Shown in pieces: positions 4,324-34,047 of a stretch of DNA of 64,000 nt (within the stretch, counting starts at the first letter, position 1; each line of letters opens with the position of its first letter). Position numbers and translations under genes: made by a program. The DNA is from an uncultured Verrucomicrobiae bacterium. GTDB taxonomy: Bacteria; Verrucomicrobiota; Verrucomicrobiia; Chthoniobacterales; UBA10450. Location of the stretch: assembly GCA_963758425.1 (NCBI GenBank), contig CAVWVV010000019.1:20129-84128 (forward strand), written 5' to 3'. A model generated the notes under the pieces. It did not search any database, had not been told where the DNA came from, and saw nothing but the letters and a program-made list of their open reading frames with translations.

Positions 4324-4414
4324 GAGACGTGAGATGTGAAAGGTGAGAAGTAATTAACCGATAACATCTCACATCTCACATCTCACATCTCACATCTCAC
4401 ATCTCACATCTCAC
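4324..4414. repeat. inverted arrays of a 7-nt tandem repeat (4 degenerate GAGATGT copies, 12-nt spacer, 7 perfect ACATCTC copies)
   Basis: Read directly. Left arm 4324-4351: GAGACGT GAGATGT GAAAGGT GAGAAGT. Right arm 4364-4412: ACATCTC x7, plus a partial AC. Confidence 0.95.
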
Positions 4415-5553: not shown

Positions 5554-7074
5554 ATGTCACCGAGCCGACCCGATATACTGTTTATCATGACGGACCAACA
5601 GCGGTTCGATACCATCGCTGCGCTCGGTAACTCGCACATTTACACCCCTAACCTCGATCGACTGGTGCGCAGGGGACTCAGCTTTTCTAATGCATACGCG
5701 ACTTGTCCAGTTTGCGTTGCCGCTCGGTATACCATTCGCACGGGATGTGAACCGCCGACGACCCGCGTTTTCAGCAATGTGAAGGCAAATCCTGTGGCCG
5801 GCCAGGCTGCGGAGATGGAAGCCCGTTGCGGGCCGTATCTGGGGCGGATCATGTCGCGCCTGGGGTACCGGACTTTCGGAATCGGAAAGTTCCATACATA
5901 TCCGTGGAATGAAGACTTGGGTTACGAAACGCTGTGGCGGAGCGAAGAGATGTACCATCCGAACAAGCGGCAGGGCGACGATTACGCTTCGTGGCTGGCT
6001 CGCGAGCATCCGGCATTCGATTTCCTGGAGCAACCAATGGGCGAACGCACCGAGATGTATTACATTCCACAGCGCAGTCCGTTTCCGCCGGAGCTAGGCG
6101 TCGAATGGTGGGCTGCCGATCGCGCCGTGCAGGGGATTACAAGCTCAGATGATCCACGGCCTTTTTTCGGGTTTGTATCATTCGTCGGCCCGCATCCGCC
6201 GCTGGCTCCCCCAATTCCTTTCAATCGGATGTACAATCCCGATCGCATGCCGGACCTCGTTTACGGCAGCGTCGAGGAAGATCATCTGGATGAAGAGATT
6301 CCATTCATGCGATATGCCATTTGGGCGGATGCGATCAACCCGGCGTTGGCACGAATCGTGAAGGCCCGATACTACGGCGAGATCAGTTATCTGGATCATT
6401 GCCTTGGCCGAATACTTGATGCTGTCGAAGCGCGACCGAACTCGGAGAATGTCCTTATCTGCTTTTTTTCGGACCATGGCGATCTTATGGGCGATCATCA
6501 CGGCTGGCAAAAACAAAACTTCTTTGAGGCTGCATGCCGTGTTCCTTTCCTGCTCAGTTGGCCGGCGCTGCTACCGGCGGGAGCTATGCGGGATGAGTTA
6601 ATCAGCCTTGCGGACTTGTTCGGAATCGCGACTGAGGCGGCTGGCGAGTGCGACGTGCGGGAGGGCACGAACGTTTTGAAAATGCTGCGAGGCGAGTGCG
6701 CGCCGCGTGATTATCTTATTGGTATGGTTGAACCGCCCGGCTCACACGATTTCAAACTCATGGTCGTGACCGACGAGTGGAAATATATTTTCATGGCGAA
6801 CGGTGGCCGGGAACAGCTTTTCAATCTCAGGCGAGATCCCAAGGAACTGTCGAACTCCGTCGCATCGGATTCTAAAATCAGGAACGATCTGCACGCTTTG
6901 GGTGTGCAAGCATGCCAGGTTCCAGGCGCAATGGACGCGCTCGATAGCGACGAGCTTCGCACTTTTCCTTTTCGCGAACGCCCGCGGACGCGCATCTATC
7001 AATTCGACCAGTCGCGTGGCGTCGTTGGATTTCCCGATGCCCCACAGAACGCATTGAAAGGTTTCGACTGGTAG
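5554..7074 (+). CDS. sulfatase (formylglycine-dependent arylsulfatase family)
   Basis: 506-aa ORF. It has an N-terminal ILFIMTDQQRFD motif, a C-x-A-x-R type active-site motif (CVAAR, followed by YTIRTG) and a downstream FFSDHGD motif. Confidence 0.85.
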   Translation: MSPSRPDILFIMTDQQRFDTIAALGNSHIYTPNLDRLVRRGLSFSNAYATCPVCVAARYTIRTGCEPPTTRVFSNVKANPVAGQAAEMEARCGPYLGRIMSRLGYRTFGIGKFHTYPWNEDLGYETLWRSEEMYHPNKRQGDDYASWLAREHPAFDFLEQPMGERTEMYYIPQRSPFPPELGVEWWAADRAVQGITSSDDPRPFFGFVSFVGPHPPLAPPIPFNRMYNPDRMPDLVYGSVEEDHLDEEIPFMRYAIWADAINPALARIVKARYYGEISYLDHCLGRILDAVEARPNSENVLICFFSDHGDLMGDHHGWQKQNFFEAACRVPFLLSWPALLPAGAMRDELISLADLFGIATEAAGECDVREGTNVLKMLRGECAPRDYLIGMVEPPGSHDFKLMVVTDEWKYIFMANGGREQLFNLRRDPKELSNSVASDSKIRNDLHALGVQACQVPGAMDALDSDELRTFPFRERPRTRIYQFDQSRGVVGFPDAPQNALKGFDW

Positions 7075-9001: not shown

Positions 9002-9712
9002 ATGGGTGCGCCGTCGCCGAGTTTGGAAATTTGTCCGGTATGCGGCGGCGGGCGGTTTACAAACGAACCAGTGCTCTGGCCGGAACTGGTCGAGCAATGG
9101 GAGTTGTCACCTAACGAAGTCGCTTACGTCAATCTACAGCAGGGTTTTTGCTGCGCGGCTTGCAAAAATAATCTGCGGACAATGACGTTGGCTGCGGCGA
9201 TGACCAAAGCGTTCGGATTCGCCGGCAGTTTCAAGGATTTCTGCCGCAACGACCCCGCGATTCGGCAACTTACTGTGATTGAAATCAATCCTGCCAAGAA
9301 TTTGTCCCCTTTTCTTCAGGCCCTTCCCAAACATGCGCTTCATTCCTTCCCCCAGCTCGACATGCAACGAATGAGCTTTGCGGATTCATCGATCGACGTC
9401 ATCATTCATTCCGACACGTTGGAACACGTTCCAGACTCAAAGGCCGCTCTGAAAGAGTCCCTGCGCGTTCTAAAACCGGGCGGCCATTTATTTTATACCG
9501 TGCCGATTGTTATTGGGCGCTTGACCCGGACACGGCACGGTTTGCCTCGAAGCTATCACGGAAGACCGGGAGTGAACCGGGACGATTGCATTGTGCAAAC
9601 GGAATACGGCGCCGATTTCTGGTCTGAGATTTTCGAGGCCGGATTTCGTGAACTGCGCCTGACGAGTCTGATCTTTCCTGCTTCCGTGGCGATCCATGCA
9701 ATCAAAACATAG
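9002..9712 (+). CDS. class I SAM-dependent methyltransferase with N-terminal Cys4 zinc-ribbon
   Basis: ORF 8753..9712 trimmed to the ATG at 9002, because the upstream part runs through the palindromic element. Motifs: CPVCGGG...CCAAC, then FADSSIDVIIHSDTLEHVPD and LKPGGHLFYTVP (Methyltransf_11-like). Confidence 0.7.
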   Translation: MGAPSPSLEICPVCGGGRFTNEPVLWPELVEQWELSPNEVAYVNLQQGFCCAACKNNLRTMTLAAAMTKAFGFAGSFKDFCRNDPAIRQLTVIEINPAKNLSPFLQALPKHALHSFPQLDMQRMSFADSSIDVIIHSDTLEHVPDSKAALKESLRVLKPGGHLFYTVPIVIGRLTRTRHGLPRSYHGRPGVNRDDCIVQTEYGADFWSEIFEAGFRELRLTSLIFPASVAIHAIKT

Positions 9713-10455
9713 CAACGACAAAATTTTTGCCGTTCCGCAGAAGGTAAAAAGCATCGGCGATTGTTACTTTTACCACACTATAGAGCTCCCTGGTCATGGA
9801 GTGATGAATGGAGATTGGGATTTGCGTCGCGGGGTAGACGATTACCTGGGAAAAGTCGTCTTCGCCGGTAAACGAGTCTTGGAAATCGGTCCAGCCAGCG
9901 GTTTTCTGACTTTCGAGATGGAAAAGCGCGGCGCCGAGGTGACCTCGGTCGAAGTAACAGCGGAGCACGGGTGGGATTTTGTTCCGTACCCGGCGTCCAG
10001 GTTGGAAGAAGTGTTCGGGCCGCGGCGAATCGTGATGGAACGCTTGAAGAATTCCTATTGGTTCAGCCATGCGGCGCAACAGTCCAAAGCGAAAGTGTAC
10101 TACGGAGACGTTTACAATTTGCCTTCTTCTCTGGGAGAATTCGACATCGCAGTAATGGGAGCAGGTACTATTGCATTGCCGAGACCCGCTCCGAATCGTG
10201 GAGCAATGCGCGGAAAAAGCCAGGTCTCTCATTATTACCGACATGTTCCACCCAGATTTGGAAGGAGCGCCGATCTGCCGTCTTGCGCCGACTCCACAAA
10301 ATTTTCTCTGGCACACCTGGTGGCATTTCAGCACGCAGTTCTTCACCCAATTTCTAGCGGTCATGGGGCTCACGACGACGCAACTTTCAACGCATCAGCA
10401 ATATCATCGCGGAAGAGCGCATACGCTCTTTACTGTCGTCGGCCAAACACGATGA
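9696..10455 (+). pseudogene. class I SAM-dependent methyltransferase with a 1-nt frameshift near 10164
   Basis: Frame 0 reads ...KRVLEIGPASGFLTFEM...EFDIAVMGA. The expected continuation (V)LLHCRDPLRIVEQCAEKARSLIITDMF... is in ORF 10171..10455. The break is at GCAGGTA, where one extra G is apparent. After the break the annotated frame turns Arg/Ser-rich and runs into mdh. Confidence 0.7.
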
Positions 10456-11983: not shown

Positions 11984-11987
11984 TGGA

Positions 11988-12059
11988 GGTTAGGCTGCTA
12001 GCCTGACTTGGCTGGCAGGCTGCCAGCCTGCCGGGTCAGCCAAGCTGGCTGACATCCAC
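11988..12059. repeat. REP element, family B
   Basis: Nested palindromes (GGCAGGCTGCCAGCCTGCC within GACTTGGCTG...CAGCCAAGC) ending in GGCTGACATCCAC. Related copies lie at 13541-13670, 14311-14360 and 17006-17106. Confidence 0.7.
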
Positions 12060-12112
12060 TTACATTCTCGCGTGAACTTCTCGCGATTTCGTTTAGTGTC
12101 CGCGCTGCGCAG

Positions 12113-13663
12113 ATGCCGCGAAATAACGAGCTCAACAAAATCCTGCTGATCGGCTCCGGTCCAATCGTAATCGGACAGGGTTGCGAATTTGATTATTCCG
12201 GCGTGCAAGCGTGCAAGGCGTTGCGCGAGGAAGGGTATGTGGTCGTGCTGGTCAATTCCAACCCGGCGACCATCATGACCGATCCAGAATTCGCGGACCG
12301 CACTTATATCGAGCCGATCACTCCGGAAGTGATCGAAGCGATCATGGAACGCGAAAAACCGGACGCTATTTTGCCAACTCTGGGCGGACAAACTGCGCTT
12401 AATGCTGCGATGGAGTTGAACCGCAACGGCGCATTGGCGCGACACGGAGTGAAGTTGATTGGCGCAAGCGCCCAGGCGATTGCAAAAGGCGAAGATCGCC
12501 AATTGTTCAAGGAAGCGATGTTGCGCATCGGGCTGGACGTACCGCGTTCCGGCGTAGCACGTTCTCTCGGAGATATCGATCGGATCGTTGGTGAGATCGG
12601 AACATTCCCGCTCATTATTCGGCCGGCGTTCACTCTGGGCGGCACCGGCGGCGGCATCGCTTACAATCGCGAAGAGCTCGATGCCATCGTTGCACGCGGG
12701 CTCGATCTCTCGCCGGTCCACGAAGTGCTGATCGAGGAATCGCTGGTCGGATGGAAAGAATTCGAGATGGAAGTGATGCGCGATCGGATGGACAACTGCG
12801 TGGTTGTTTGTTCCATCGAGAATTTCGATCCGATGGGTGTGCATACCGGCGACTCGATCACTGTCGCGCCGGTGCAGACGCTCACCGACAAGGAATACCA
12901 GTTGATGCGCGACGCCGCGTTCGCCGTCATTCGCGAGATCGGCGTGGAGACCGGCGGGTCGAACATTCAGTTTGCAGTGAATCCTGACAACGGACGCATG
13001 GTTGTAATTGAAATGAACCCGCGCGTCTCGCGTTCCAGCGCGCTGGCATCGAAGGCAACGGGATTTCCGATTGCGAAAATCGCGGCAAAGCTCGCGGTTG
13101 GATACACGCTCGATGAAATCAGGAACGATATCACACGCGAAACGCCGGCATGCTTTGAGCCGACCATCGATTACTGCGTGGTTAAGGTACCGCGGTTTAC
13201 GTTCGAAAAGTTTCCACAGGCCGAAGCGACGCTTACGACGCGAATGAAAAGCGTCGGCGAAGCGATGGCGATCGGACGGACGTTTAAGGAAGCCTTGCAA
13301 AAAGCGCTGCGCAGCCTGGAGATCAAACGCTTCGGTCTATGTGGCGATGGCGCAAATAAAGATGTCGATTCTGAGACGTTGCGCTTAAAGCTGGCGATCC
13401 CGAACGCGGAACGGATTTTTTATCTAGCCCAGGCGTTTCAAGACGGGATGCCAATCGATGAGGTTTTCGAATTAACGAAGATCGATAGGTGGTTTTTGAG
13501 CAATGTGCAGCAGATCGTGGAGGAAGCGGATCGGATGTCGCGCTGCCAGCGTGACTCGGCGAGCGGGCTGCCAGCCCGCGTTGGTCATGTTTGCCGAGCT
13601 GGCAGCTTGGCGGCCGAGTCAGCCAAGTTCGCCACGGCGAATCGCCTCTGGCGGACTGGCTGA
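12113..13663 (+). CDS. carB: carbamoyl-phosphate synthase large subunit, N-terminal part (carboxyphosphate domain plus the start of the oligomerisation domain)
   Basis: CarB sequence is unmistakable from [30 protein letters not shown] to ...[17 protein letters not shown]. The last roughly 45 codons are REP-B derived (..[12 protein letters not shown]..). The ORF stops at a TGA inside the REP 13-mer GGCTGACATCCAG. Confidence 0.9.
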
Positions 13664-16121
13664 CATCCAGTTCCACGACCTCGACAAACAGGCGCCGATC
13701 AAGATAACCAGACGTCACCTGCCTCATTGGGAGCAACCCGGCGTGACCTACTTCGTTACGTTTCGGTTAGCGGATGCCATCGCGAGTGACGTCCTCGCAC
13801 AATGGCGGGAAGAACGTGCCCAGTGGCTCAAGTTTCATCCTGAGCCTTGGGACTGGAAAACCGCTCGCGAATATATGCGGCGATTCGAAGAAGAACGCGA
13901 GCAGTGGCTCGATCAAGGCCAGGGCTCCTGTTTGCTGCGGAACCAACGTGTACACGAGATCATTGTGGAGAACCTCAATCATTTCGATCGCGACCGTTAT
14001 GTTCTGGATGCGTTTGTGGTGATGCCTAATCACGTGCATGTCATTGTGAAGCCGATCGAGCTGAATTCCCTGAACACAATCCTGCATGCTTGGAAGTCTT
14101 ACACTAGCAATCGGGTCAACGAACTACTTAAACGAAAAGGCCCGCTCTGGATGGCGGAAACATTCGATACGATCGTGCGGGATTCTGCACATCTGGCTGC
14201 CTGCCGCGATTATATCGAGCGTAATCCAAAGCAGGCGAACTTGAGAGATGTTGAATTTGTTCTAGAGCTGCGTGATGCGCTCGTTGCGGATGGCGATGAG
14301 CCGCAGATACAGCAGGCTGGCAGCCTGCCTGCCGAGTCAGGCTGGCAGCCTGACATCCAGCAAGAGAAATTGCTGCGCGCGAAGAAACTCGGGTTTTCGG
14401 ATCGGCAACTCGCGGTGGCGAGTGGACTTAGCGCAACCGAAATCCGCGCGAAGCGGCAGTCGTCGGGCGTAGTTCCCACTTATCGCCTCGTCGATACCTG
14501 CGCGGCAGAGTTTGAAGCTTACACGCCGTATTACTACTCGACGTATGGCGACGAGAACGAGCGGCGTGAAAGTGGTAAGCGAAAGATCATGATCCTGGGT
14601 GGCGGACCGAACCGGATCGGCCAGGGAATTGAATTCGATTACTGTTGTGTGCACGCTGCATTCGCGCTGCGCGAGCTCGGATTCGAAACGATCATGGTTA
14701 ACTCGAATCCGGAAACCGTCTCCACGGATTACGACACGAGCGACAAACTCTATTTTGAACCCCTCACCCTCGAAGACGTGCTCAATATTTATGATCAGGA
14801 GAAACCCGAGGGCGTGTTCGTCCAGTTTGGCGGTCAAACCCCGTTGAATCTGGCCAGCGGATTGAAAGCGGCAGACGTGCCGATTCTTGGCACACAGCCC
14901 GAAAGCATCGAGACGGCTGAAGATCGACGCCTGTTCGCGGATATGCTCGACAAACTTGGTCTTCGCCAAACCCCGAACGGTTCGGCGACAAGCACGGAAC
15001 AGGCTGTCGCGATAGCGAGGAAAATCGGCTACCCGGTACTCGTTAGGCCGAGCTTCGTCCTGGGCGGGCGCGCGATGGAGCTTGTCTATAATCAGGAAGA
15101 TCTTCGGCGTTACATGGCGAGCGCAATTGAAGTGACACCGGATCGTCCGGTGCTGATCGATCGTTTCCTCGAAGACGCCATCGAGGTCGATGTCGATTGC
15201 ATCTCGGATGGCGAAATGACGGTGATGGGCGCAATCATGGAGCACATCGAGGAAGCAGGCATTCACAGCGGTGACAGCGCATGCGTCATTCCCACATTCT
15301 CCTTGTCGCAAACAATTCTGGATGAGATTTCCGCTGCCACAAAGGCGATGGCGCGCGAGTTGAAGGTGCGAGGCCTGATGAATGTGCAATTCGCCGTGAA
15401 GGGCGACGACGTTTACGTGCTGGAAGTGAATCCACGCGCGTCCCGCACGGTTCCCTTCGTTAGCAAGGCAATTGGTGTCCCGCTTGCAAAACTCGCTGCC
15501 AAAGTGATGACCGGAAAATCATTGCGCGAGCTCGGTTTCACAAAGGAAATCGTGCCGAAACATTTCTCAGTGAAGGAAGCGGTGTTCCCCTTTCTGCGCT
15601 ACGAAGGCCTGGATATCTCGCTCGGACCGGAGATGAAATCGACCGGCGAAGTGATGGGGATGGATGTGGATCTCGGCCTTGCCTATGCAAAATCGCAAAT
15701 GGCGGCGCCGCCGCCGTTGCCGAAAAAAGGAAAAGTGTTCATCAGCGTCAAGGACACTGACAAGGAAGCGGTGATTCCGGTCGCGCGCGAATTTGTGAAG
15801 CTCGGCTTTGAAATCATTTCCACGAGTGGAACCGCAGTAGCGTTAACGAAAGCGAAAATCAAAGTGACCAAGGTCTTCAAAATTCACACAGGCCGCCCAA
15901 ATGTCCTCGACCGCATCAAGAATGGCGACATCAACTTCATCATCAACACGCCGAGCGGGAAAATTCCGCGCGAACACGAAGTGGTCATTCGCAATGCGGC
16001 GCTGGCGGCGAAGATTCCCATCATGACGACGGTGCGCGCGGCGCTTGCGAGCGCGAACGGAATACGGTCACTGCAAAAACGCAAAGTTCAGGTGCGCAGT
16101 CTGCAGGAATACCATACGTGA
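13503..16121 (+). CDS. carB: ORF fusing the RAYT domain to the C-terminal ~590 aa of CarB (rest of the oligomerisation domain, carbamoyl-phosphate domain, allosteric/MGS domain)
   Basis: There is no stop between the RAYT part and ...[19 protein letters not shown]...[10 protein letters not shown]...[24 protein letters not shown]... through to the end of CarB. This ORF is in a different frame from 12113..13663 and overlaps it by 161 nt. Confidence 0.85.
13541..14360 (+). mobile_element. REP-flanked RAYT unit (REP-associated tyrosine transposase, Y1 HUH family) inside carB
   Basis: Transposase-like sequence: [35 protein letters not shown] (HUH), WKSYTSNRV (candidate catalytic Tyr), [11 protein letters not shown]. 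It is flanked by family-B REPs. The 13-mers at 13658-13670 and 14348-14360 match at 12/13 positions and lie exactly 690 nt apart. Confidence 0.8.
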
Positions 16122-16393
16122 ATGACGAAATTCGAATGACGAATGACGAAACAAATCCGAACGATCGAAATGACAAATGCCCAACGTTCAAATTCTGTCA
16201 TTCCGAGCGAAGTCGAGAATGAAGCGGCTGGGGAAGCCGCGACATGGACGGGAAGGCCGGAGGCTGAGCGAACGGGAAGTGAGCGAATCAACTCTCTGAT
16301 TGATCATCAAGAGTGTCTCCAGCCTTCGCATGAAGCTACGGCTTGGCAGGCGACTTCGCTCGACATGACATTGCATTGATGTCATTTGTCAGC

Positions 16394-16996
16394 ATGAAAT
16401 TCTCAATCCTCCTTGCCGCACTGTTAAGCACTGTGGTCTTTGCCGCCGAAGAAAAGAAAGAAACTCCTTCTATGAGTAACCCAAACGAAGTCGCTGTGAT
16501 AAAAACGAACGAAGGCGAAATGGTCGTCCAGTTTTGGACCGATGCCGCGCCAAATACGATCGAAAATTTTAAGAAGCTGGCGCGTCAAGGCTTTTACGAT
16601 GGCACCATTTTCCACCGAATCGTCAAAGGATTCATGGTTCAGGGCGGCGACCCAAACTCGAAAGACCCGGCGAAAGAGAGCACTTACGGAGCAGGCGACC
16701 CTGGTTACACAATCAAAGCCGAGTTTAACAATCATTCTCACGATCGCGGTGTCATCTCGATGGCGCGCGGGCCCAATCCGGACTCGGCCGGGTCGCAATT
16801 CTTTATCTGCCTCGCGCCCGTTCGGAGGCTTGATGGGCAATACACCACATTCGGCAAATTGATCAAAGGCGTCGATGTACTCGAGAAAATCGGCGACACA
16901 TCGGTCGAGCGCAATGCACAGGGCGAAATGAGCAGGCCAACGAAACGGATCGTGATCGAAAGCGTGAAAATCGTGCCGGCGAATTCAGTGAAGTAG
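16394..16996 (+). CDS. peptidyl-prolyl cis-trans isomerase, cyclophilin type, secreted
   Basis: Trimmed to MKFSILLAALLSTVVFAAEE (signal peptide). Cyclophilin motifs: FHRIVKGFMVQGGDP, GVISMARG, GSQFFI. Confidence 0.9.
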   Translation: MKFSILLAALLSTVVFAAEEKKETPSMSNPNEVAVIKTNEGEMVVQFWTDAAPNTIENFKKLARQGFYDGTIFHRIVKGFMVQGGDPNSKDPAKESTYGAGDPGYTIKAEFNNHSHDRGVISMARGPNPDSAGSQFFICLAPVRRLDGQYTTFGKLIKGVDVLEKIGDTSVERNAQGEMSRPTKRIVIESVKIVPANSVK

Positions 16997-17005
16997 AGGA
17001 ACGGA

Positions 17006-17106
17006 GGTCAGGCTGCCAGCCTGACTCGGCCGGCGAGCTGCCGAGCTTGCCGGATCCTCGACATGCTGGCAGCATGTCGTCCGAGACAGGCAGGTTGCCT
17101 GTCATC
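17006..17106. repeat. REP family B cluster (four consecutive hairpins)
   Basis: TCAGGCTGCCAGCCTGA and GACATGCTGGCAGCATGTC are perfect hairpins; GAGCTGCCGAGCTT is an imperfect palindrome; GACAGGCAGGTTGCCTGTC is near-perfect. Confidence 0.65.
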
Positions 17107-17125: not shown

Positions 17126-18016
17126 ATGGCTACCGAACCAACCACAACAAACATCGCTCTCATCCAGATGCGATGCGGCCCGGAGCTGGAGAAGAATTTC
17201 TCGCGAGCGATTGAATTCATTCGCGAAGCGGCACAAAAAGGCGCCCAGATCGTTTGCTTGCCGGAGCTTTTTCGGTCGCAATATTTTTGCCAGACAGAAG
17301 ATCACAAGAATTTCGATTTGGCTGAGGAAATTCCGGGCAAATCAACATCGGCATTGGGAGAAGTAGCGCGAGAAACCGGCGCAGTAATCATTGCCTCACT
17401 TTTCGAGAAACGCAGCCCCGGCCTCTATCACAACACCGCCGCAATCATTGACGCGAATGGAAAATTGCTCGGCAAATACCGCAAAATGCATATCCCGGAC
17501 GATCCGCTGTATCACGAGAAGTTTTATTTCGCGCCAGGCGATCTTGGATTTCAGGCGTGGCCAACAACCCAAGGTAAGATCGGCGTCTGCGTTTGCTGGG
17601 ACCAATGGTATCCGGAAGCGGCGCGACTGACGGCGTTGCACGGCGCGGAGATTATTTTTTATCCAACAGCAATCGGCTGGCATCCATCGGAAAAGAAGGA
17701 GTTCGGCGCAGCGCAATATTCTGCATGGGAAACAATTCAGCGCAGTCACGCAATTGCGAATGGTTGCTATGTAGCGGTGCCAAATCGCGTCGGCCATGAA
17801 ACGCCTGCGGGTGGAGAAGGGATTGAATTTTGGGGACAAAGCTTCGTTTGCGCACCGGACGGCGAAATCATGGCCAAAGGTTCGGTCGATCGCGAGGAGA
17901 TCGTGATGGCCGATGTAGATTGGGGCCGCGTAAACGAGCAGCGCACGCATTGGCCATTTTTGCGCGATCGCCGCGTTGATGCCTTTTCGGAAATCCAGCA
18001 GCGTCTGATCGACTAA
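17126..18016 (+). CDS. aguB: N-carbamoylputrescine amidase (carbon-nitrogen hydrolase family)
   Basis: Trimmed to MATEPTTTNIALIQ, because the longer ORF start lies inside REPs. Motifs: CLPELF, YRKMHIPDDP, GVCVCWDQWYPEAAR. Confidence 0.85.
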   Translation: MATEPTTTNIALIQMRCGPELEKNFSRAIEFIREAAQKGAQIVCLPELFRSQYFCQTEDHKNFDLAEEIPGKSTSALGEVARETGAVIIASLFEKRSPGLYHNTAAIIDANGKLLGKYRKMHIPDDPLYHEKFYFAPGDLGFQAWPTTQGKIGVCVCWDQWYPEAARLTALHGAEIIFYPTAIGWHPSEKKEFGAAQYSAWETIQRSHAIANGCYVAVPNRVGHETPAGGEGIEFWGQSFVCAPDGEIMAKGSVDREEIVMADVDWGRVNEQRTHWPFLRDRRVDAFSEIQQRLID

Positions 18017-18183
18017 TCTCTGCGGACGGTTGAATGACATTCAGGAGGTCGGGGTTCGAGCGCCTAGGTTCCACCAGTCAATTGGAATCACTTGAGGGTC
18101 TCGCGAAGCGATCGCGGCAAACTTGGCGTAACGAGTGCAACGAAACGGCATCGTGAGGAGCATGGGCATCGAACGATAATCGA

Positions 18184-18444
18184 TTAAGCGCCAGGCGGCA
18201 TCTGGCCGGCATTGGCTTCCCGAAACTTTTTCAGATTTCGCTTAATTTGCCCTCCCTTGTCGCGTCCGGTAGCTTCGAGATACTGTTCGACTTCATTGAG
18301 CAGCGTCTGCAACCCAGGATGGCCCGCCGCAACTCCCAGGCCGAGGAGCGCGCGAATGGCATAGTGCAGCGGCATCGCACTGACCCTATCCTCCCCCGCT
18401 TTTAGGCGTTCCATCTCTGCTTCGATGCACTCGGCGAGAGTCAC
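18184..18444 (-). CDS. hypothetical 86-aa helical protein (GTG start), overlapping the end of the TIR gene
   Basis: AAGGAG lies 10 nt upstream of the GTG at 18444. The sequence looks protein-like (ECIEAEMERLKAGEDRVSAMPLHYAIRALLGLG...). It could alternatively be the frameshifted C-terminus of the TIR protein. Confidence 0.4.
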   Translation of the reverse strand: MTLAECIEAEMERLKAGEDRVSAMPLHYAIRALLGLGVAAGHPGLQTLLNEVEQYLEATGRDKGGQIKRNLKKFREANAGQMPPGA

Positions 18445-19531
18445 GGACGATTGGCTCCTTTGCTTGCTCTTTCGATTTCTCCATCAGAAGGTAGAAGACG
18501 ATTCGGTCCAGTTCCCAGATACTCGCACGCCAACTCAAAGTTTGTGCTTCCGGAAAGGCGAGTTCGCCGTCGTTAATCGCCCGTTGCTTGGCGCGCACCA
18601 ATTCCTTCCTCTCGGCAAAATCAGTCATGCGAGAGAACTCAATCGATTCCGGGATCACCGGTGCTGCCGATGGGCTGTCCAGGAGGAATCGCAGCCTCCG
18701 AATCTGCCTCAAACGCCGTTCGGAAGCGGCAGAAACGACCCCAAGCGTGGGCGAGCCGTCCGAAGCCTTGGTGAAATCCACATCGCCCTCTTCGCTAACC
18801 CAGAACTTCTTTTCTTCAATCAAGAAGCTCTTCAACAGTCCGGCGTAGCCGTCGATTGAGCTAATGAGCTGGTTAAAGAGCTCCTTTTGGTACGGCTCGC
18901 AGATGCGGTCGATCATGGTCTTATAACCCTGCAAGGTTTTTAGGGTTTCGCGGGCGCCCGAGTAGCGGTCTACCCACGTCTGGTGGGTGCACTCACGGAG
19001 CTCTTCCTGAAAAGTTTTTCGCTCGAAAAGCTCCCGAAAATTCGCAACGACGTGTGAAATGCGATCAACCTTGAGCTTCTCCATGCGCTCGTTGAGAGCT
19101 TTCCAATGGGCGTCGTAATCGGCGGGGGGCTCAGTTCCGGCCAGTTTGCAAAGATCATGGGCGAGACGCCGGGTATCGTCTTCCTTATTGGTGGTTCCCT
19201 GAAAAGCACTCAATGGGCCTTTCAAATCCTCTGAACGAACCCCAAACAAGTACGGAAACACTCTGTTCTTTTCTAGCCGCCCGAGCACAGCTCCCGCTTC
19301 GAAGTGCAGCCATTGAGATTGAGTGTTCTCCGCAGTCATGCAGATCAAAGCGGCGTCGGCTTCGGCGAGTTCGCGCCGGACTGCCTCGAACCACTCGATG
19401 CCTTTCTCTATCTGAGGCGAAAAGAAGATGTCTTCATTAGAAAGTCCAGGGACGACATGGATCAGCCATTCTTTCAAGGATTCGGCGAGTTTCTGACTAC
19501 GGATCTGAGACCAGCAAAGGAATATTTTCAT
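18386..19531 (-). CDS. TIR-domain protein with an uncharacterised ~245-aa C-terminal domain
   Basis: The N-terminal ~135 aa follow the bacterial TIR pattern: MKIFLCWS, LKEWL, GIEWFEAVRRELAEADAALICMTAEN, and SQWLHFEAGA with the conserved Glu. I recognise no motif in the C-terminal part. Confidence 0.8.
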   Translation of the reverse strand: MKIFLCWSQIRSQKLAESLKEWLIHVVPGLSNEDIFFSPQIEKGIEWFEAVRRELAEADAALICMTAENTQSQWLHFEAGAVLGRLEKNRVFPYLFGVRSEDLKGPLSAFQGTTNKEDDTRRLAHDLCKLAGTEPPADYDAHWKALNERMEKLKVDRISHVVANFRELFERKTFQEELRECTHQTWVDRYSGARETLKTLQGYKTMIDRICEPYQKELFNQLISSIDGYAGLLKSFLIEEKKFWVSEEGDVDFTKASDGSPTLGVVSAASERRLRQIRRLRFLLDSPSAAPVIPESIEFSRMTDFAERKELVRAKQRAINDGELAFPEAQTLSWRASIWELDRIVFYLLMEKSKEQAKEPIVRDSRRVHRSRDGTPKSGGG

Positions 19532-19558
19532 GGCGCCGAGTGTATAGGTCTGCGTTCG

Positions 19559-21013
19559 CTAGGAATTCCACCAGCCTGCCTTCTTGAGGCCCGCGTCGGT
19601 CTTGATGTTGGGGTCCGATTGGTGCGGGAACTCATGCAGTTGGTTGCTACCGTTCACGATGTCCTGGCCATCAGCCTTGGACACGCGTCGAGGGTGAATT
19701 CCGTAGCGAGCACCAACCGGCATCTGTTTTCCGCCGAGCGCGTTGAGCTTCTGCGTGATCAGGTCATACAGGGCCTGCATATTGAAGCCGTTCGGGTCAC
19801 CATGGTAGTCGTCGGGGTGGTCCCGAACTTTGTCCCAGTGTTTGCCTGTGCCGGCGCGAATCTCCGCCGCCGAGTATTCCCGCCAGATGACTGACCGGCC
19901 CAGGTTGCGGTCCGTTTCCTTGTGGACCGTGATTGTGAGCAGGTGTCGCGCGCGGACTGAGGCGAAGATGTACAGGTCGGCCAGGACGTCGATCGCCGCC
20001 TTGGTCCATTTGTAATAGGTGACTTTCTTGCCCTTCCGCCTGTAGCCTATGGACGCGTACTGGTCGGCACTGGAGGGGTCGCCGCGCGATCCGTCGGACT
20101 TGTCGGGCACGTCGGACTCGACGTCGGGGACGGTCTCGATGTTGATCGTGTGCTCGTTCACGTATTTTTTCCCGTTCTTGCTCAGGAACTCATAGACGGT
20201 GCCCTGCTTGTTCTTAGTGAAGTCGTGAGTGGCCGCGTAGTAGCCGGCGCGGTTGAGGAAGCCGTGCACAGCGCCGCCTTTCGTCTTGGGCTGGTTGGCC
20301 TTGAAACGCCTGTCCTTTAACGTCGCCTTTGCGCCCACGTCGTGGATGATGAACCAGCCCTTGATGATGTCGCTGGTTTTCAGGTCGGCGTTGGGTTCGT
20401 TGGCCGCCTCCTTGAGCGCCGCGTGTTCATCGAGCCACTTCGTTATGAACTCGCGGCGGTTCTTGCCCTTGAGAAACTCGTCGAACTTCGTGCCGTCCAT
20501 TTCGACAGCGGCGTCGCGCTTCGGGTCATCAAAGCGTCCCGGAATCTCGAGCATCACCTTGAGGTAGTCGGGGATCGAGACGCTGGCGACGTGGCCTTGT
20601 GCGATGCTCATGCGCTCGACCTTATGTCCTGCGCCGTCCTCCAGCACGAACCCTATTTCGGCCGCGCTCCCTTCTTCCAAAATGTCCTGGCGGGGGTTCC
20701 ACAGGTGGAAGGCCTTGCTCCCCAGCCAGAGGATGACATCGGGCTTCTTGGTAGCCCTGTAGCTCTTCTCCAACTTGGCGTTAGCCCACTTGGCATTGGC
20801 CACCGCCACGTGAGGAATAGCTGTTTTGGCTGGTTTCTTGACGAACTTGGGGTTGGGCTCCAGGTCCAACGTGAACTCCGCCATCTGGACGTTGTTCGCC
20901 GTTGGGGCGTCCGAGCGTCCGGGCTCGCTGGTGTCGCACTTGTAAACCTTGAGACGAGCACCGCTGACCTTGCTGGCGTCCGCGGTTCCCCAGCGGTCGA
21001 CGATGAGCGCCAC
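19559..21013 (-). CDS. hypothetical 484-aa protein with weak Amidase_2/PGRP-like motifs
   Basis: Intact ORF with a GTG start. Candidate motifs, all divergent: WFIIHDVG, VHGFLNRAGYY, NEHTINIE, LTITVHKETDR. It is in frame with the upstream acidic ORF across a single TAA. Confidence 0.5.
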   Translation of the reverse strand: MALIVDRWGTADASKVSGARLKVYKCDTSEPGRSDAPTANNVQMAEFTLDLEPNPKFVKKPAKTAIPHVAVANAKWANAKLEKSYRATKKPDVILWLGSKAFHLWNPRQDILEEGSAAEIGFVLEDGAGHKVERMSIAQGHVASVSIPDYLKVMLEIPGRFDDPKRDAAVEMDGTKFDEFLKGKNRREFITKWLDEHAALKEAANEPNADLKTSDIIKGWFIIHDVGAKATLKDRRFKANQPKTKGGAVHGFLNRAGYYAATHDFTKNKQGTVYEFLSKNGKKYVNEHTINIETVPDVESDVPDKSDGSRGDPSSADQYASIGYRRKGKKVTYYKWTKAAIDVLADLYIFASVRARHLLTITVHKETDRNLGRSVIWREYSAAEIRAGTGKHWDKVRDHPDDYHGDPNGFNMQALYDLITQKLNALGGKQMPVGARYGIHPRRVSKADGQDIVNGSNQLHEFPHQSDPNIKTDAGLKKAGWWNS

Positions 21014-21064
21014 CTCCGCCGGCGTGCTACCGGTCCTGGCCTTGTTGTTTACGATGCGGGCGGC

Positions 21065-21694
21065 TTAGGCGACACCCGGCAGCATTTCGGAATCCTCGTC
21101 CTCAAGCTCAAGCTCCGTTTCCTCTTCCTCTTCGTCGGCGTTGGGTTTATCAGAATCGCCCTCTGAAACTCGCCGAGTTCCCTCCTTTTCGCTGTACATA
21201 TGGAGAACAGACCTGCGTCTCGGGCTGATAGGCGATTTCCCCTTCCTCTTCAAGCGTCTGGGTACGGCGCCTCGTCCTCGGGGGTTAAAAGTCCCTCTAG
21301 CTCCTCGTTTCCTTCGTTCAGCGGAGCTTCCTCGCTAGCTCCGCTGAGATATTCATCAGATCCTTCAGTTGCAAGGTTCTCATCTTCCTCCGGCTCCGAC
21401 TCGGCGATATGAGGCTCCGAAAGTTCAACTCCTTCGCTCTCGCCAAGCTCGTGTGTTACCAGTTCCTTTAACCCCGCTTCAGTGCCGAAGTCGATCGGGG
21501 CGTCGGTGACGCCGAAATCTTTGGCGAAGGTCATCCACATGATATTCTTCTTCCGATGCGGCGAGGTTCACAGAAGCTCCGGTCAGTCCCTTAAGAAACG
21601 GGCTCTCCTTTGCAAGCCTCTCGACTGTGGAATCGAAATCGGGCCGCGGTTCAGCGCCCAGTAACTCTTCATCAAGAAACGGAGACTTCATCAT
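21065..21694 (-). pseudogene. acidic ESPF-motif protein, readable only across three frames
   Basis: The pieces are 21479..21694 (MMKSPFLDEELLG...KESPFLKGL), 21250..21540 and 21065..21253 (Asp/Glu-rich). The start overlaps the upstream stop as ATGA. Confidence 0.45.
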
Positions 21695-22817
21695 TCAACA
21701 GTCGCCACGAAATCGTCTTCGGGAAAAAACATCTCCGGGTGGATTCCGGAGAGATCCCCAGACCGCATGGCTTTTTGCAGTTCTTTTCGATATGCCTCCA
21801 CTGCGTCAAGAAGCGGAACGTCGGGGTTCGTTTCAATAATCGAAACGCCTTGGGGCACGCGCTGCTGATTGGCGGCGAGGTCGTCGTTGATCTCTTTGAT
21901 CAGCGGTCCTCTTCATTATCCAGCTTCTCGCCTTGGCTGCTGATTCGCTTTCTCGAAACTTGCGGCATGCCGCTGGATTTCGTCGATGACCCGAGCGCGC
22001 AGCACATTGCCCCTTCCATCCTTTGCGGCTTCGAGTCGCTGTTGCAATGTTGCCCACGAAGCACGCACCGCGTCCGAATGCTCCCTCGCAATGTTGGCGA
22101 GCAACGCATTGTGCTTGAGGTACCGCAAGTGCGGAGGAGACTTGGGGAGCCCGGGACCGGCAGGGCCAAGCTTCTTCTCCGACAGCTTGCAGACCTCTTT
22201 CCATAACGCCTTTGCGTCCGAAGGTTTCGACGTGAGTGGTCTTACAACATAGGGCGTCCTCATTCCCCGATACATAGCCTGGACCACCCTCTGCTGCTGT
22301 CTCGTTGGATTCCCCAGCGTCGAGTTCGTGGACCTCAGCGTGTTTGTTGTTGATACTGATGACGACATGCCGATTGAACGTCAGGTCCGCTCGAATCATC
22401 GCTCCGACATGAGCAGGCATCTCGACCAAGAAAATGCGCGGATTTGCGATCCCCAGAGGTGTCGAGCCGGGCGATAAAAGGCGCCCGAGTTTGTGCAGCC
22501 AGCGCACCGCATAGACGAAGCAATCGTGCACCAGCGAACCCGTGATCGCGCGCGGGAATGCACGAATCAGAGTAATCTGGGACACCGCATCCCTCGCGAA
22601 GGTCGTGCGGAGCGTGAACGGTGAAAGCCTCGAGGGACCCGCTACGTAATTCAGAATCATTTCTAACTTCGTCTCCCTCCGCAGCAACGGTGAGTCCCAC
22701 GTTTCCCTTACCCAGGCCTGCCAGGAGTTAGTGTCGTGCAGCTTCGGAAGAGGGTCGGCCTCTCTCTTTTTCCGCAGGCGCTCGATGAAATCTCAGCTTG
22801 ACGCTGTCGAAATACAT
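21691..22817 (-). pseudogene. hypothetical protein, at least 4 frame breaks
   Basis: The ATG at 22817 overlaps the upstream TAA (TAATG). Protein-like segments are spread over ORFs 21833..22687 and 21916..22368 and an unlisted tail (LIKEINDDLAANQQ...FVATVE). That tail lies behind in-frame TAA TGA codons. Confidence 0.45.
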
Positions 22818-23284
22818 TAGCAGGCAGTTGTGTTCATCCCCGTTATCGGGATAGGTGTGGGAGTGTAGTGCTGGTAGCCGATATCGCTGGCACCGGCGGG
22901 ATTGAAGTAATCCCGATACAAGGTAGGCGTTAGGCGAAATGTCGGAGCCAGCGCGTTCTCATCGTCGACAAGGTGTGTTATCGCGGCGGTCTCCAAGTCT
23001 TTCTCCCATTCCTTGTTCACCACTTCCCATCTCAGCCGGCTTTTCGCCGCAGCCTCCAAGACACCGTCTTGCAGCGCCTGATAATGCCGCCAGAGTATCT
23101 GCACCGCCAGCGTTCGGTACGCGAGCAGCAGGTTGTTATCGACGAAAATAGGGGCACGACTCGTAAGTTCCGACTGAAAGAAGCGAAACATGGCGGCTGC
23201 CCGGTTCATCTGCCGCCGGTGGGTTAGTGGTTTGACCACAATGGGGGAAATCTGATGAAGGCGCCGCATCGCGAAGCTGTACAA
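22817..23284 (-). CDS. hypothetical 155-aa protein
   Basis: Uninterrupted ORF with a TTG start. No motif recognised. Confidence 0.4.
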   Translation of the reverse strand: MYSFAMRRLHQISPIVVKPLTHRRQMNRAAAMFRFFQSELTSRAPIFVDNNLLLAYRTLAVQILWRHYQALQDGVLEAAAKSRLRWEVVNKEWEKDLETAAITHLVDDENALAPTFRLTPTLYRDYFNPAGASDIGYQHYTPTPIPITGMNTTAC

Positions 23285-23348
23285 ATTTTTGCCCCATCAG
23301 CGCCAGTAAGCGCGCTGCCTAGACGGTCGGGGTGGTCCACGAAGTTGC

Positions 23349-23784
23349 TTACCTGTTGCCGGGCTCCGTCGGAGTGTCCAGAATGAACGCCTCCGCCCCT
23401 AAACGGGCCACATGAATCCTGAATCTCTGCGACGGCCCTCCCCGTAGCGACTCAAATGTCGCATTCAGCGCGGCGGGAAGTCTGTTGCTGAATTTCACCG
23501 GATCTCCGAACACGGCAAACGCCGCGTCCAGCGCCTTGGCTTGCGCTGTGCCCATTGCCTGCAATTGCCCGCGCAGGGTTGCGTCATTCGGAAGCCCCGG
23601 AAGACCCGCGGGCAGCGTTAGGATCTGCTCCTCCAACTCGGGAGTAGGCGTCGGCGGTTTCATCCTCGTCGTGCTCCTCCTCGTCCCGGGCTTCGGCCAT
23701 CTCCTCGTCTTCAAATTCAAGTTCCTCGTCAGGTTTCTCAGCGTGAGCAAGCTCATCCCTGGCCGTTAACGCGCTCTTCGTCAA
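23349..23784 (-). pseudogene. small protein with an acidic N-terminus, split between two or three frames
   Basis: 23584..23784 (..DEELEFEDEEMAEARDEEEHDEDE..) continues plausibly as 23349..23756 (KPPTPTPELEEQILTLPAGLPGLPNDATLRGQL...). Confidence 0.4.
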
Positions 23785-24257
23785 AGTCTTCGGCGTTCGC
23801 CATCCTGCTCCCGTGGTTCTTCGAACTCGGAGCCTCGTTCGGGCTCAGTGCCGCTGGACAACGGCGGCGCTGCGGGCTCCTCGGCTTCTTCTTCACTCGG
23901 CGCATCTAGAAGCCCGTCATGCAACATGACTTCTTCTTCGGCAAGCAGGTCTTCGCCGAGTTCATCGGATCCTCCCAGCTCCCGCTCAACGAGTATCCCG
24001 GGTTCCTCGACCAAGGCACCTTGGAAAGGGCTCTCCGCTATCAGGGCAGCCACACGCGGTTCCAACTCCTCCTCGGCTCTCTTGGCGAAGAGCTCTCGAT
24101 GGAGGAAAAGGAGACTCGCCGGCCCCGTATGGTCCGTGGACGAGTGCTGCTCCAAGAAGATTGCGCTTTCGTGCTCGAAAGCCGGGGTTTTGCGGGTCGG
24201 CGCGGCGCTCGCAGTTCGCACCTGAGGACAGGGGACAACAGCTTGCTTTGCGGGCAT
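23781..24257 (-). CDS. acidic ESPF-motif protein
   Basis: 158-aa ORF containing AFEHESAIFLEQ and LIAESPFQGALVEE, with a Glu-rich C-terminus. Confidence 0.45.
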   Translation of the reverse strand: MPAKQAVVPCPQVRTASAAPTRKTPAFEHESAIFLEQHSSTDHTGPASLLFLHRELFAKRAEEELEPRVAALIAESPFQGALVEEPGILVERELGGSDELGEDLLAEEEVMLHDGLLDAPSEEEAEEPAAPPLSSGTEPERGSEFEEPREQDGERRRL

Positions 24258-25804
24258 GCCGCGCGCATCACGTCGTTCGCCGCGCGCACACCCGACCGTA
24301 GCGCGCCCTCCATGTATCCGAAGAAGTCCATCTGCGTGTGCTCACCCGCAAAAAACAGCCGTCCCTGCAATGGCTCGCTGAGCTTTTTGCCAATTGTGAA
24401 GATCTGTCCTTTCTTCGGTGACGCGTAGCCTGACCTAATGAATTGCTCCTGGGACCAGTCAACCAGCAGTGGGGTCGACTTAAGATTTTTCTCGTAGTTC
24501 CGATAGAGATCCATCAGACCCTGCCGGAACTTTTTTCGGGAGGAATGTGTCCGCCGGGCAAAGACGGAAAACACGATCCCCTGACCAGCACGTTGCGTTT
24601 GGTTGTCGGTTCCCTCCCAGACCATGCCAATATCCAATGAACCGCCGTTGGGCGCGGCCTTATCCTTGATCCAAAAGCGTTCGGTCATGTTGCTGAAGAA
24701 TTTCACCGCGTCCCCCATCCCCATCATGTCGACCATTTTCGGGCCCTTCGGATCTAGCGTGATGCTCAATTTCCCCCAAACGCTAGGCGGGATCGCTAGG
24801 ATCACGTAGTCGAAGTCTTCTTTCGATTCCTTGCGATAGATGGGCTCTCTGTTGGAACGGGGACTACCGTCAGCGTGACGCGATTCGAGATGTCTATTCC
24901 CTTTACCATCCTGTTCAGCTTAATCTCAGGCGGCTTGGTGCGGCCTTTGACCATGGCCTCGAATTTCCGCCGCCATTTTAGTCGCGAGCTTCTGATTGCC
25001 GTCGGCGCATCGAAAGATCTCTAACTCATCCCAATAACCCATCAGGTCAGTGTCCTTCGGCGTGAACGGGCCGCCCTTCACCAGACAGAGGAGACCGAGA
25101 AAGTTCAGTTCGTGGAGCGGCGCCACGTAATTGTTCAAGACCAGCATCTCCATCGCTTTCCAAAGCCGGCCGTTTTTCCTTATCTTCAGAACCCCGAGCG
25201 CGTCAGCGACGGACATCTTGTCAAACTTCTCCAGGCCCTTCTGGTCCCACGGTCGGGACGGATATTTGATCTGTCTTGCCAACTTGGCGATCGGCTTCAG
25301 GATCTTGTCTCTCAAGTCCTTCTCAAGCTTCTCGATCTCGGCCATTGATAGAGGCTTATCCAACCGGAGCTTCAACTCGAGGCCTGCCTTGGCATAAAGA
25401 TCTTTGTCCATCCTCCCTATCCATGTCAGGCCGTATCCAAGTGCGAGTTCGCGCCACATCAGGTGGAACGATCCGATAAGCTCCGCCCCGCCTCGGGCGA
25501 TCCGGCCCGCGCTGAATGTCGTGTCGCTGCGGACGCGTCCGCCCACCTCTTTGTGCGCTTCAAACAGACTGACCCTGGCCAGGCTGTGTTTGGTAAGCCA
25601 CCTTGCCGCCGCCAAACCGGCGAAGCCCCCGCCCACAATCGCCACCGAAGTGTTTTTCAGCCAGGCGCATTCAATCGGAAACAACGGTGGCTGCCAGCGT
25701 GAGTGCTCGAGGCGGAGATTCTCCTCGATCCGAGCAAGGCGTTCGGACCCGGTGAGCGTTGGTCCAAAGAAACTGTGGAGTTGGGTGTAGAGCGAGCGTG
25801 ACAT
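24041..25804 (-). pseudogene. FAD-dependent amine oxidase (flavin monoamine/L-amino-acid oxidase family), disrupted
   Basis: The N-terminus has VAIVGGGFAGLAAARWL..FEAHKEVGGRV. The C-terminus has FFAGEHT..GYMEGALRSGVRAA. ORFs 24926..25804 and 24041..24805 share a frame but are separated by TGA and TAA. The expected middle segment (EIKLNRMVKGIDISNRVTLTV) is readable only in another frame. The last ~70 codons are an out-of-frame read of the next gene. Confidence 0.75.
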
Positions 25805-26089
25805 GGCGGGCGGATACTAGGGCGAAACGCTGCCCATGGACGACGTTCGGCGCCGGTCCGTCGAGGATGAGGGTTTGCTGCCAGCGGCAGAACTAGGCCG
25901 ATCAAGTAGTTTCTTCGCGGCCTGGCCGCGACGGGGTTTTGAGCCATGAACACTAACAAACACAAGGCAATCTCCTGAGATCAACGAGGAAACCGGCCCC
26001 GCTCACATTCAAATATCTTCAAAGACCTGAGCCCGGCCTCCTGACATTGACAGTGCCGAAGCAAATGCAAGCGCGGACATGGTCGACCT

Positions 26090-27525: not shown

Positions 27526-27610
27526 TTTTTCCTCCTCTTGTCTTTGATTTCACGCAGCCTGTAATGCCCCGCCTAGCCTTAGCATTGCCTGCTCCTGTAG
27601 GTTTAGGATG

Positions 27611-31221: not shown

Positions 31222-31295
31222 CTAGATTTAGAGTGCGGCCAACTTTGTAGAATGGACGCCTTTCGACGCTAGACCCCTAAAAGGCTAAATAATTC

Positions 31296-32450: not shown

Positions 32451-32624
32451 CAATCGGTACGCCGTGGGATTAAACTACGCCGTGAAATCGGGTGCCGGTT
32501 GGTCGACCAAGCTGGTCGACGTGGGACAGCGCTGGACTCCTGGTCTAGTCCTAGACTCCGAGGACAATCCCCACATGGTCTTCTACGACGCCGAGCACGG
32601 CGCACTGATCTACGCGACACGATC

Positions 32625-32831
32625 GTCGGGCACGGAATCGAATTCGGTGGCAAAGTTTCATGTGCGCGCCGAGCGGAATGATCGTTGCCAAGGGCTCGGT
32701 CGATCGCGAAGAGATCGTCATAGCTGAGATCGACTGGGAGCGCGGGAGATCGACATCGTACTCATTGGCTGTTCCTGCGGGATCGGCGCGTCGATGCTTA
32801 CGGCGGCCTCGAGCAACGGATGCTAGACTGA
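32625..32831 (+). pseudogene. decayed second copy of the aguB 3' end
   Basis: Aligns by eye to 17820-18016. GIEFGGK..(frameshift)..IVAKGSVDREEIVIAEIDWER...FLRDRRVDAYGGLEQRMLD* compares with GIEFWGQSFVCAPDGEIMAKGSVDREEIVMADVDWGR...FLRDRRVDAFSEIQQRLID*. Confidence 0.75.
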
Positions 32832-32877
32832 TTTTTTTTGGGCGGTCTGCTGCGCGGTTTATGTTAATACGGTGGCG

Positions 32878-32994: not shown

Positions 32995-33081
32995 AATCAT
33001 TTGTTCCAACGTCTCCTTGGAAATGGCGGAGTCCTTCGTGCTCCGTTACGCTCCTATGTTATACTGCACCTACACGCAATC

Positions 33082-33525: not shown

Positions 33526-33578
33526 AAAGTCCGAGACGCGGCTTGCTGAAATTAAGTTATGGAAAGAAGAAGTTAGCC

Positions 33579-34004: not shown

Positions 34005-34047
34005 ACTGAGATCCGACTGTTGCGCGGTTCGTGTTAATACGAGTTCG

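Follow-up and report, generated by a model that had tools for sequence, protein, structure and literature searches.

Repetitive extragenic palindromic (REP) sequences and the REP-associated tyrosine transposases (RAYTs) that accompany them, known as REPIN-RAYT systems and represented by E. coli TnpA_REP (4ER8) and the RAYTs of Pseudomonas, are the closest described counterparts of an element found inside carB, the gene for the carbamoyl phosphate synthetase large subunit (CarB), in a 64,000-nucleotide stretch of DNA (the window, contig CAVWVV010000019.1) from an uncultured Verrucomicrobiae bacterium. The carB element shares with these systems the Y1 HUH fold, the HUH motif, and a C-terminal-helix tyrosine in the context Y-I-x-x-N-P, together with inverted flanking REP hairpins, a dispersed REP family, and co-variation of RAYT and REP type. 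A canonical RAYT gene stands alone and has start and stop codons of its own, whereas the carB RAYT appears to be translated inside the host open reading frame (ORF). It also carries a ~60-aa helical insertion after β-1 and scores below the NCBIfam equivalog cut-off, and its cassette types are exchanged among close hosts, in contrast to the strict vertical inheritance of canonical RAYTs. The function and expression of RAYTs are still debated.

Inteins with homing endonucleases offer a second comparison. Like the carB cassette, they are in-frame selfish inserts at conserved positions in essential proteins, many of which handle nucleic acids (DnaE, helicases, aminoacyl-tRNA synthetases), lack a start and stop of their own, occur as filled, empty, and degraded alleles, and have a phylogeny incongruent with that of the host. 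The enzyme of the cassette is a single-stranded-DNA HUH transposase, not a LAGLIDADG or HNH endonuclease, and protein splicing is not expected. The insert has no Hint/intein Pfam match and no conserved junction Cys/Ser/Thr or Asn; its junction residues vary, the first downstream CarB residues being Q/R-E-K-L-L. An intein was therefore rejected, and the mature protein must retain the insert.

IS200/IS605 insertion sequences and IStrons share with the cassette a Y1 transposase with sub-terminal hairpins, and IStrons also reside inside genes without killing them. The sole Pfam match of the carB insert is Y1_Tnp, with no tnpB, and no group I intron turned up, no Rfam search having been made. IStrons rely on RNA splicing, whereas the carB cassette would be harmless through in-frame translation; in contrast to IS200/IS605 elements, it shows neither a promoter nor a start that is evidently its own. 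Rickettsia palindromic elements (RPEs) and intragenic REPs translated in frame are already known (Di Nocera et al. 2013, PMC3733652). They, too, are in-frame palindromic repeats that add peptide segments, and the solo-REP carB alleles of two relatives (P0302, P0380) are exactly of this kind, but they are short non-coding repeats, whereas the carB cassette carries a whole transposase gene that would be translated with its host. A full-text literature search, with subscription journals mostly outside its coverage, found no transposase of the RAYT or Y1 type whose translation takes place inside a host gene, its yield being limited to intragenic REPs and RPEs, and the novelty of this in-frame RAYT lifestyle is probable rather than certain.

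The carB insert of this Ca. Udaeobacter-like verrucomicrobium is probably a REP-RAYT-REP cassette without a start or stop codon, translated as an inserted CarB domain in a variable loop of the oligomerisation domain. The gene and its surroundings contain the following features:

12113..13528, + strand: carB 5' segment, CarB residues 1-472, with the pre-ATP-grasp domain, the first ATP-grasp domain, and the first half of the oligomerisation domain (Pfam D1/D2/D3)
13529..13667, + strand: N-linker, REP DNA in translation, a REPIN-like doublet with strong hairpins
13533..13579, − strand: left REP copy, inverted; left arm of a 47-nt inverted repeat
13598..13670, + strand: second REP copy, degenerate, direct orientation, ending in the 11-mer CTGACATCCAG
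13643..13644, + strand: frame-break site, two bases fewer than both intact close relatives
13668..14255, + strand: RAYT (Y1 HUH transposase) core, 196 codons (Pfam Y1_Tnp, NF047646, 4ER8 alignment, AlphaFold (AF2)/Foldseek)
14031-14039, + strand: HUH motif H-V-H, in MPNHVHV (14022-14042)
14211-14213, + strand: catalytic Tyr in RDYIERNP
14256..14360, + strand: C-linker, whose last 49 nt are a two-hairpin REP, with the right inverted-repeat arm at 14312-14358
14361..16121, + strand: carB 3' segment, with the rest of the oligomerisation domain, the second pre-ATP-grasp/ATP-grasp, the MGS-like allosteric domain, and the stop codon
11991..12057, strand not assigned: same-family REP cluster in the intergenic region that separates sufE from carB
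17007..17099, strand not assigned: downstream REP cluster, again of this family, in the intergenic region that separates the PPIase gene from the CN-hydrolase gene

The CarB sequence ends at 13528 (...QQIVEEA) and picks up again at 14361. The 832 nt between these points consist, in order, of the N-linker with two REP copies, the RAYT core, and the C-linker ending in the two-hairpin REP. Two ORFs in different frames cover the gene, 12113..13663 (516 aa) and 13503..16121 (872 aa), and overlap by 161 nt. The first matches Pfam CPSase_L_D1, D2, and positions 2-55 of D3; the second matches Y1_Tnp (E 1.3e-6), D3 positions 57-77, then D1, D2, and MGS. The CarB domain set is complete across the two (D1-D2-D3 / D3-D1-D2-MGS), and the break of the D3 profile at 55|57 indicates that the oligomerisation domain is split cleanly. 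The CarB 5' segment is 99% identical in amino acids to that of a syntenic relative (L001). A 47-nt inverted repeat, 85% complementary between its arms, lies on both sides of the transposase, and the 11-mer CTGACATCCAG recurs as a direct repeat at 13660-13670 and 14350-14360, with a spacing of exactly 690 nt. The TGA that closes the first ORF (13661-13663) falls within this 11-mer. In the window's ORF listing, the RAYT core, the single RAYT of the 64 kb, has no start codon near the domain N-terminus and no stop ahead of the CarB C-terminal half (CarB-C). An earlier note on this DNA, made from its letters, had correctly described CarB as interrupted and then resumed around a Y1 transposase, in two overlapping ORFs of different frames with no stop between transposase and CarB-C. 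The spacing of its direct repeats and the stop codon inside them also stand; the exact shared word is 11 nt long and not 13.

The same fusion is encoded as one ORF in more than 120 clusters of related proteins, none of them split at the window's break point. A search with RAYT plus CarB-C against a protein collection listed 120 clusters out of 8000 scored; among these, leaving aside the window's own 792-aa fragment (P0016), nearly all are 1305-1400 aa long, with 97-100% of the query covered at 76-94% identity. CPSase domains are present in all fused clusters listed, and a precomputed Y1_Tnp match in most of them. Automated annotation at JGI had already noticed these two-domain proteins, under the name 'carbamoylphosphate synthase large subunit/REP element-mobilizing transposase RayT'. 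Some are assigned by NCBI to Candidatus Udaeobacter, and the set as a whole belongs to Ca. Udaeobacter/Chthoniobacterales. Two syntenic Illumina contigs with nucleotide identities to the window of 96.2% (L001) and 98.3% across carB (L084) have an intact carB of 1336 codons. L084 encodes the protein P0391, which, like the orthologue P0001, is 1336 aa long; a single ~1336-codon ORF with an in-frame transposase, broken by an indel, had been one option of the earlier note, and these intact proteins bear it out. The same CarB/insert junctions recur in independent JGI, ENA, and NCBI assemblies and in 11 GTDB species representatives. More distant lineages, a 'Chthoniobacter' metagenome-assembled genome (MAG) and a Verrucomicrobiales MAG, have a RAYT at the same carB site, and a Chthoniobacter sp. 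MAG (L006:602-1168) carries a RAYT cassette at another CarB site, within the second ATP-grasp domain, after which CPSase_L_D2 picks up again at profile position 80.

The intact orthologue P0001 reaches equivalog-level scores, 1682 bits on PRK05294 (cut-off 599) and 1518 bits on TIGR01369 (cut-off 1027). In this protein, positions 475 and 478 of the CarB family models bracket the insert, with TIGR01369 positions 2-475 before it and PRK05294 positions 478-1058 after it. The site aligns to a loop in the oligomerisation domain of E. coli CarB (residues ~472-489) that already varies in length, the E. coli loop being 9-12 residues longer than that of relatives with an empty site. The E. coli CarB mutants of Kim and Raushel, from 2001, reportedly stay catalytically active despite being unable to oligomerise, so the insertion site would be tolerant.

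The insert is a genuine HUH/Y1 RAYT relative, as the earlier note had supposed. Pfam Y1_Tnp matches it at 28.9 bits, above the gathering score of 23, and in a profile search with the core, no solved structure matches better by sequence than E. coli TnpA_REP (4ER8). PEHMH of 4ER8 aligns with the HUH motif of the insert, and the Tyr of HVDYIYINP, which we take to be the catalytic Tyr115, with the Tyr of RDYIERNP. In an AF2 model of the RAYT core (pLDDT, the predicted local distance difference test, 90.5), this Tyr lies within helix 173-189, and a clade-specific pair of helices, ~60 aa in all, follows strand β-1. Foldseek ranks 4er8_A, TnpA_REP with a bound REP hairpin, first (E 1e-4, TMt 0.55), followed by the TnpA proteins of IS200/IS608/ISDra2. 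Across the window and 119 fused homologues, residues H641, H643, Y701, N705, and WKS661-663 are invariant (120/120), and mean identity is 62% for the RAYT, 91-93% for CarB, and 32-39% for the linkers. Purifying selection acts on the RAYT domain and on CarB alike: for the RAYT, the ratio of nonsynonymous to synonymous divergence (dN/dS) is 0.085 for the best unsaturated pair (L008-L009), 0.09 between the window and L084, and 0.12-0.23 for saturated pairs, with 0.04-0.17 for CarB.

The N-linker has a mean pairwise protein identity of 32% and a dN/dS of ~0.9 against L084, and its DNA forms hairpins with a folding free energy of -86 kcal/mol (z -6.5). Linkers in 12 of the 12 carB loci examined with DNA fold as REP-type hairpins with 3-nt loops. 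Left and right REP arms are 84-100% identical within a genome, differ between genomes, and show stem changes that appear compensatory (GTCAGGC/GCCTGAC vs CACAGGC/GCCTGTG). The REP core CAGGCTGSCAGCCTG occurs eight times in the 64-kb window against 0.11 copies expected, and seven of the eight lie within 11991-17076. A metagenome scan with the 19-nt hairpin matched at least 120 stretches; 77 of 80 fetched loci have no RAYT nearby, yet their flanks share a two-hairpin consensus, which argues for a dispersed REP family. Upstream of carB, 19 nt of REP hairpin (11985-12003) are present in the window and absent in L084, a REP presence/absence polymorphism between strains 98% identical.

RAYT and CarB distances correlate weakly (r = 0.25), and a carB cluster of <5% divergence holds up to six RAYT types that are >25% apart. 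In the most direct comparison, P0065 and P0091, CarB is identical up to both junctions while the inserts are 42% divergent; this pair and the general discordance between RAYT and CarB rule out strict vertical inheritance of the cassette. RAYT clusters follow the linker (REP) type, with GSLPAESGW accompanying cluster 1 in 27 of 28 cases, TGKMPVPQ cluster 4, and GSMRDGSGKMPELR cluster 6. The earlier note had asked about REP-only or empty versions of the site in relatives, and both were found. The empty site, in relatives 83-90% identical in the flanks, is a loop of 4-8 residues, with syntenic loci in L082 and L083, and other relatives retain REP-only remnants of 11-47 residues, among them the solo-REP alleles P0302 and P0380; the P0302 remnant consists of the N- and C-linker ends of a P0091-type cassette fused together. 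Differing cassettes in near-identical carB backgrounds, together with empty and REP-only alleles, indicate that cassettes turn over. In L082 and L083, carB is called in two to three pieces of at most 650 aa on long contigs, probably owing to frameshifts in long-read assemblies, and a junction-spanning protein search consequently gave only short CarB fragments.

The clade extends to other host genes. The RAYT profile was run against GTDB species genomes, every match was lengthened to the next in-frame stop in both directions, and a RAYT counted as embedded when at least 100 in-frame codons lay on both sides of it. By this definition, 51 of 81 loci of the RAYT clade are embedded and 18 are free-standing. 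Pfam host domains occur on both sides of the RAYT in the same frame in more than 15 unrelated host proteins. These include translation and RNA enzymes (valyl-tRNA synthetase (ValRS), occupied at the same site in four genomes, leucyl-tRNA synthetase, and the CCA-adding enzyme), DNA replication and repair proteins (DnaE, a DinG-like helicase, and XseA), restriction-modification proteins (type I HsdR, type IIG Eco57I/MmeI-like enzymes, and a DUF1156 methyltransferase), and metabolic or other proteins (MqnA, UDPGP, PdxA, HypF, adenosine deaminase, and radical-SAM proteins). The best 150 of 24,996 family representatives include 39 with at least 100 residues flanking the RAYT on each side and another 38 with such a flank on one side; the HUH motif and the Tyr are invariant in 39 of 39 embedded proteins from other hosts. 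RAYTs group by host gene, with the MqnA and second-site CarB copies nested inside the carB group, and CarB- and ValRS-embedded copies coexist in one genome (L004, L045). In L024 (4657-7608), one ORF joins a zinc-dependent alcohol dehydrogenase-like protein, a RAYT, and a GFO/IDH/MocA oxidoreductase, and this cassette may have fused two neighboring genes.

These observations suggest how the element could persist. The cassette would be read through in frame with carB, and because it lacks a start and stop codon, relatives would make one ~1336-aa polypeptide in which two poorly conserved linkers, both encoded by REP sequence, tether a complete RAYT domain. The domain is a predicted REP-binding and REP-cleaving enzyme that would borrow the transcription and translation of its host gene. 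Residence in an essential gene would shield the cassette from deletion, because only precise or in-frame loss would be viable, and new insertions, or recombination via the conserved carB flanks, could spread or replace cassettes. Whether this holds across the family is evenly balanced in our judgment: a large RAYT-like Y1 clade, with ~25,000 database relatives, may live as REP-RAYT-REP cassettes without start or stop inside host ORFs, expressed as inserted domains of essential proteins, shielded by host essentiality, and subject to exchange or renewed insertion at the sites they occupy, which would yield filled, empty, and solo-REP alleles. Such cassettes would be functional counterparts of inteins that dispense with splicing.

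Several points weigh against the reading of the carB insert as a translated, mobile REP-RAYT-REP cassette. Its translation as a fusion is deduced from the continuity of the ORF, and that a RAYT held at both ends is enzymatically active is a prediction. NCBIfam NF047646 (REP_Tyr_transpos) scores 66 bits against a cut-off of 80, with profile positions 25-136, the C-terminal two thirds, matched because of the extra helix pair after strand β-1; given this score and the helical insertion, the domain may be something other than a REP mobiliser. The REP family of the window is confined to the carB neighborhood, and the dispersed REP copies are metagenomic and may come from organisms other than the cassette hosts. 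Cassette mosaicism could derive in part from recombination within carB or from chimeric metagenome contigs (P0020/P0026). Finally, 24 kb aligned to L084 hold no other uncompensated coding indel, which weakens the assembly-error explanation of the frame break discussed below. Long residence in carB, in-frame conservation, and the sub-cut-off score with its additional helices would also suit a RAYT that has been fully exapted, serving as a structural or regulatory CarB insert or a nucleic-acid-binding moonlighting domain, with no transposase role and with fossil REPs. We consider this improbable, since a purely structural role leaves the invariant HUH and Tyr unexplained, and exaptation accounts neither for REP arms that keep their hairpins and match within a genome while differing between genomes, nor for RAYT/REP co-variation, cassette replacement in near-identical carB backgrounds, and the same domain in >15 unrelated host proteins. 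The repeats at both ends and the adjoining frame break might instead suggest a recent, disruptive IS-like hit or a misassembly, in frame by coincidence, but the junctions shared by independent assemblies and 11 species representatives, and the strong purifying selection on the insert, leave this next to no probability. The misassembly of the insertion that the earlier note had allowed for is thereby set aside, as is its view of carB as interrupted and possibly inactivated: the insertion is lineage-wide, selected, and in frame.

The window copy itself differs from its relatives by two single-base gaps around a CG, AATC-G-CCTCTGG against AATCCGTCCTCTGG / AATACGTCCTCTGG in the two intact relatives, and not by the homopolymer frameshift proposed in the earlier note. 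This is the sole frame-breaking difference in carB between the window and both L001 and L084. The two bases missing at 13643/13644 generate the overlapping ORFs, and putting them back yields a single 1336-codon ORF whose product differs from P0391 at 12 residues. Either the sequencing or consensus step dropped these two nucleotides of the unconstrained N-linker, or a mutation removed them very recently, and we rate an artefact slightly better than an even bet. A real, recent split is possible but doubtful. It would give a CarB N-terminal protein (CarB-N; 516 aa with five out-of-frame terminal residues) plus a RAYT-CarB-C protein from ATG 13503 or 13587, the two associating non-covalently, and it takes the sequence as given at face value. 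The break falls in a segment without protein-level constraint, the -2 shift puts both ATGs in frame with RAYT-CarB-C, and all other coding indels over 24 kb against L084 keep the frame, so the assembly is not generally indel-prone. Yet the more than 120 related clusters are all unsplit at this point, the nearest relatives (dS ~0.02) are intact, two separate 1-nt gaps around CG look more like an artefact of base calling or consensus building, the methyltransferase gene at 10164 is likewise frameshifted against L001, neither CarB half shows decay, and no Shine-Dalgarno-like sequence precedes either ATG. Naturally split carB genes exist in Aquifex aeolicus and Methanocaldococcus jannaschii, where the splits are conserved gene boundaries between homologous halves. 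If the gap is real, the window would share with them a two-polypeptide CarB broken near the middle, but its break stems from an indel specific to this strain and lies within the inserted linker, and the likeness drawn in the earlier note fails because the split is not conserved in any relative. Recent inactivation, with reliance on another carB or on external arginine and pyrimidines, would likewise explain the frame break and would agree with the frameshifted methyltransferase nearby and with the reduced genome and auxotrophies reported for Ca. Udaeobacter. Against it, the CarB halves differ from those of intact L084 by two and four residues, with dN/dS of 0.10 and 0.17 and no other lesion, and a pseudogene is very unlikely.

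Two further explanations of the break were rejected. An assembly full of indel errors was dismissed when five further same-strand ORF pairs that resemble frameshifts turned out to be separate genes and the other coding indels against L084 proved to keep the frame, so this argument gives no ground for discounting the carB break. Programmed +1 frameshifting at GGC-UGA-C finds no slippery or RF2-like context, while the relatives need no shift. Elsewhere in the window, the Methyltransf_23-type gene at 9696-10455, 3.5 kb upstream of the carB break, has one additional G at 10164 relative to its intact 252-aa L001 orthologue and continues in ORF 10171..10455; the whole gene is absent from L084. Paired +1/-1 indels relative to L084, a few bases apart in coding sequence and with the downstream frame kept, occur at 5962-5971, 7038-7040, 39608-39614, and 40319-40323.

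Outside the carB region, a ~16-kb segment (17983-34027) is absent from L084 and L001, which join the CN-hydrolase gene directly to the 34028 region. It encodes a TIR-domain protein (18386-19558) and mostly unannotatable ORFs and may be a strain-specific island. Within it, at 24041-25816 on the − strand, an amine-oxidase gene is divided between two ORFs of the same frame, which match positions 1-216 and 243-443 of Pfam Amino_oxidase and are parted by TGA-GAT-TAA at 24928-24920; nonsense mutation may have disrupted the gene, or the split may be natural. A heptamer (CACATCT/CATCTCA, ~5 copies) is tandemly repeated in the intergenic stretch 4357-4395, where the L084 sequence is different and aligns poorly.

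The carB cassette points to a third route by which mobile elements may live in essential genes, beside protein splicing (inteins) and RNA splicing (introns, IStrons), namely insertion into a tolerant loop with the reading frame preserved, so that host and element are translated together. The embedded clade would provide a natural map of sites permissive for domains of 250-300 aa in CarB, aminoacyl-tRNA synthetases, DnaE, and restriction enzymes. Such genes are also an annotation hazard, as they may be read as disrupted, fused, or pseudogenes; the window gene was called as a 792-aa fragment. For RAYTs, the arrangement is a new context in which expression would be tied to a housekeeping enzyme. 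The carriers, Ca. Udaeobacter, are reportedly among the most abundant soil bacteria (PMC7343977). If the reading proposed here is right, their carB polypeptide could carry the enzyme that maintains the REP population of the genome.

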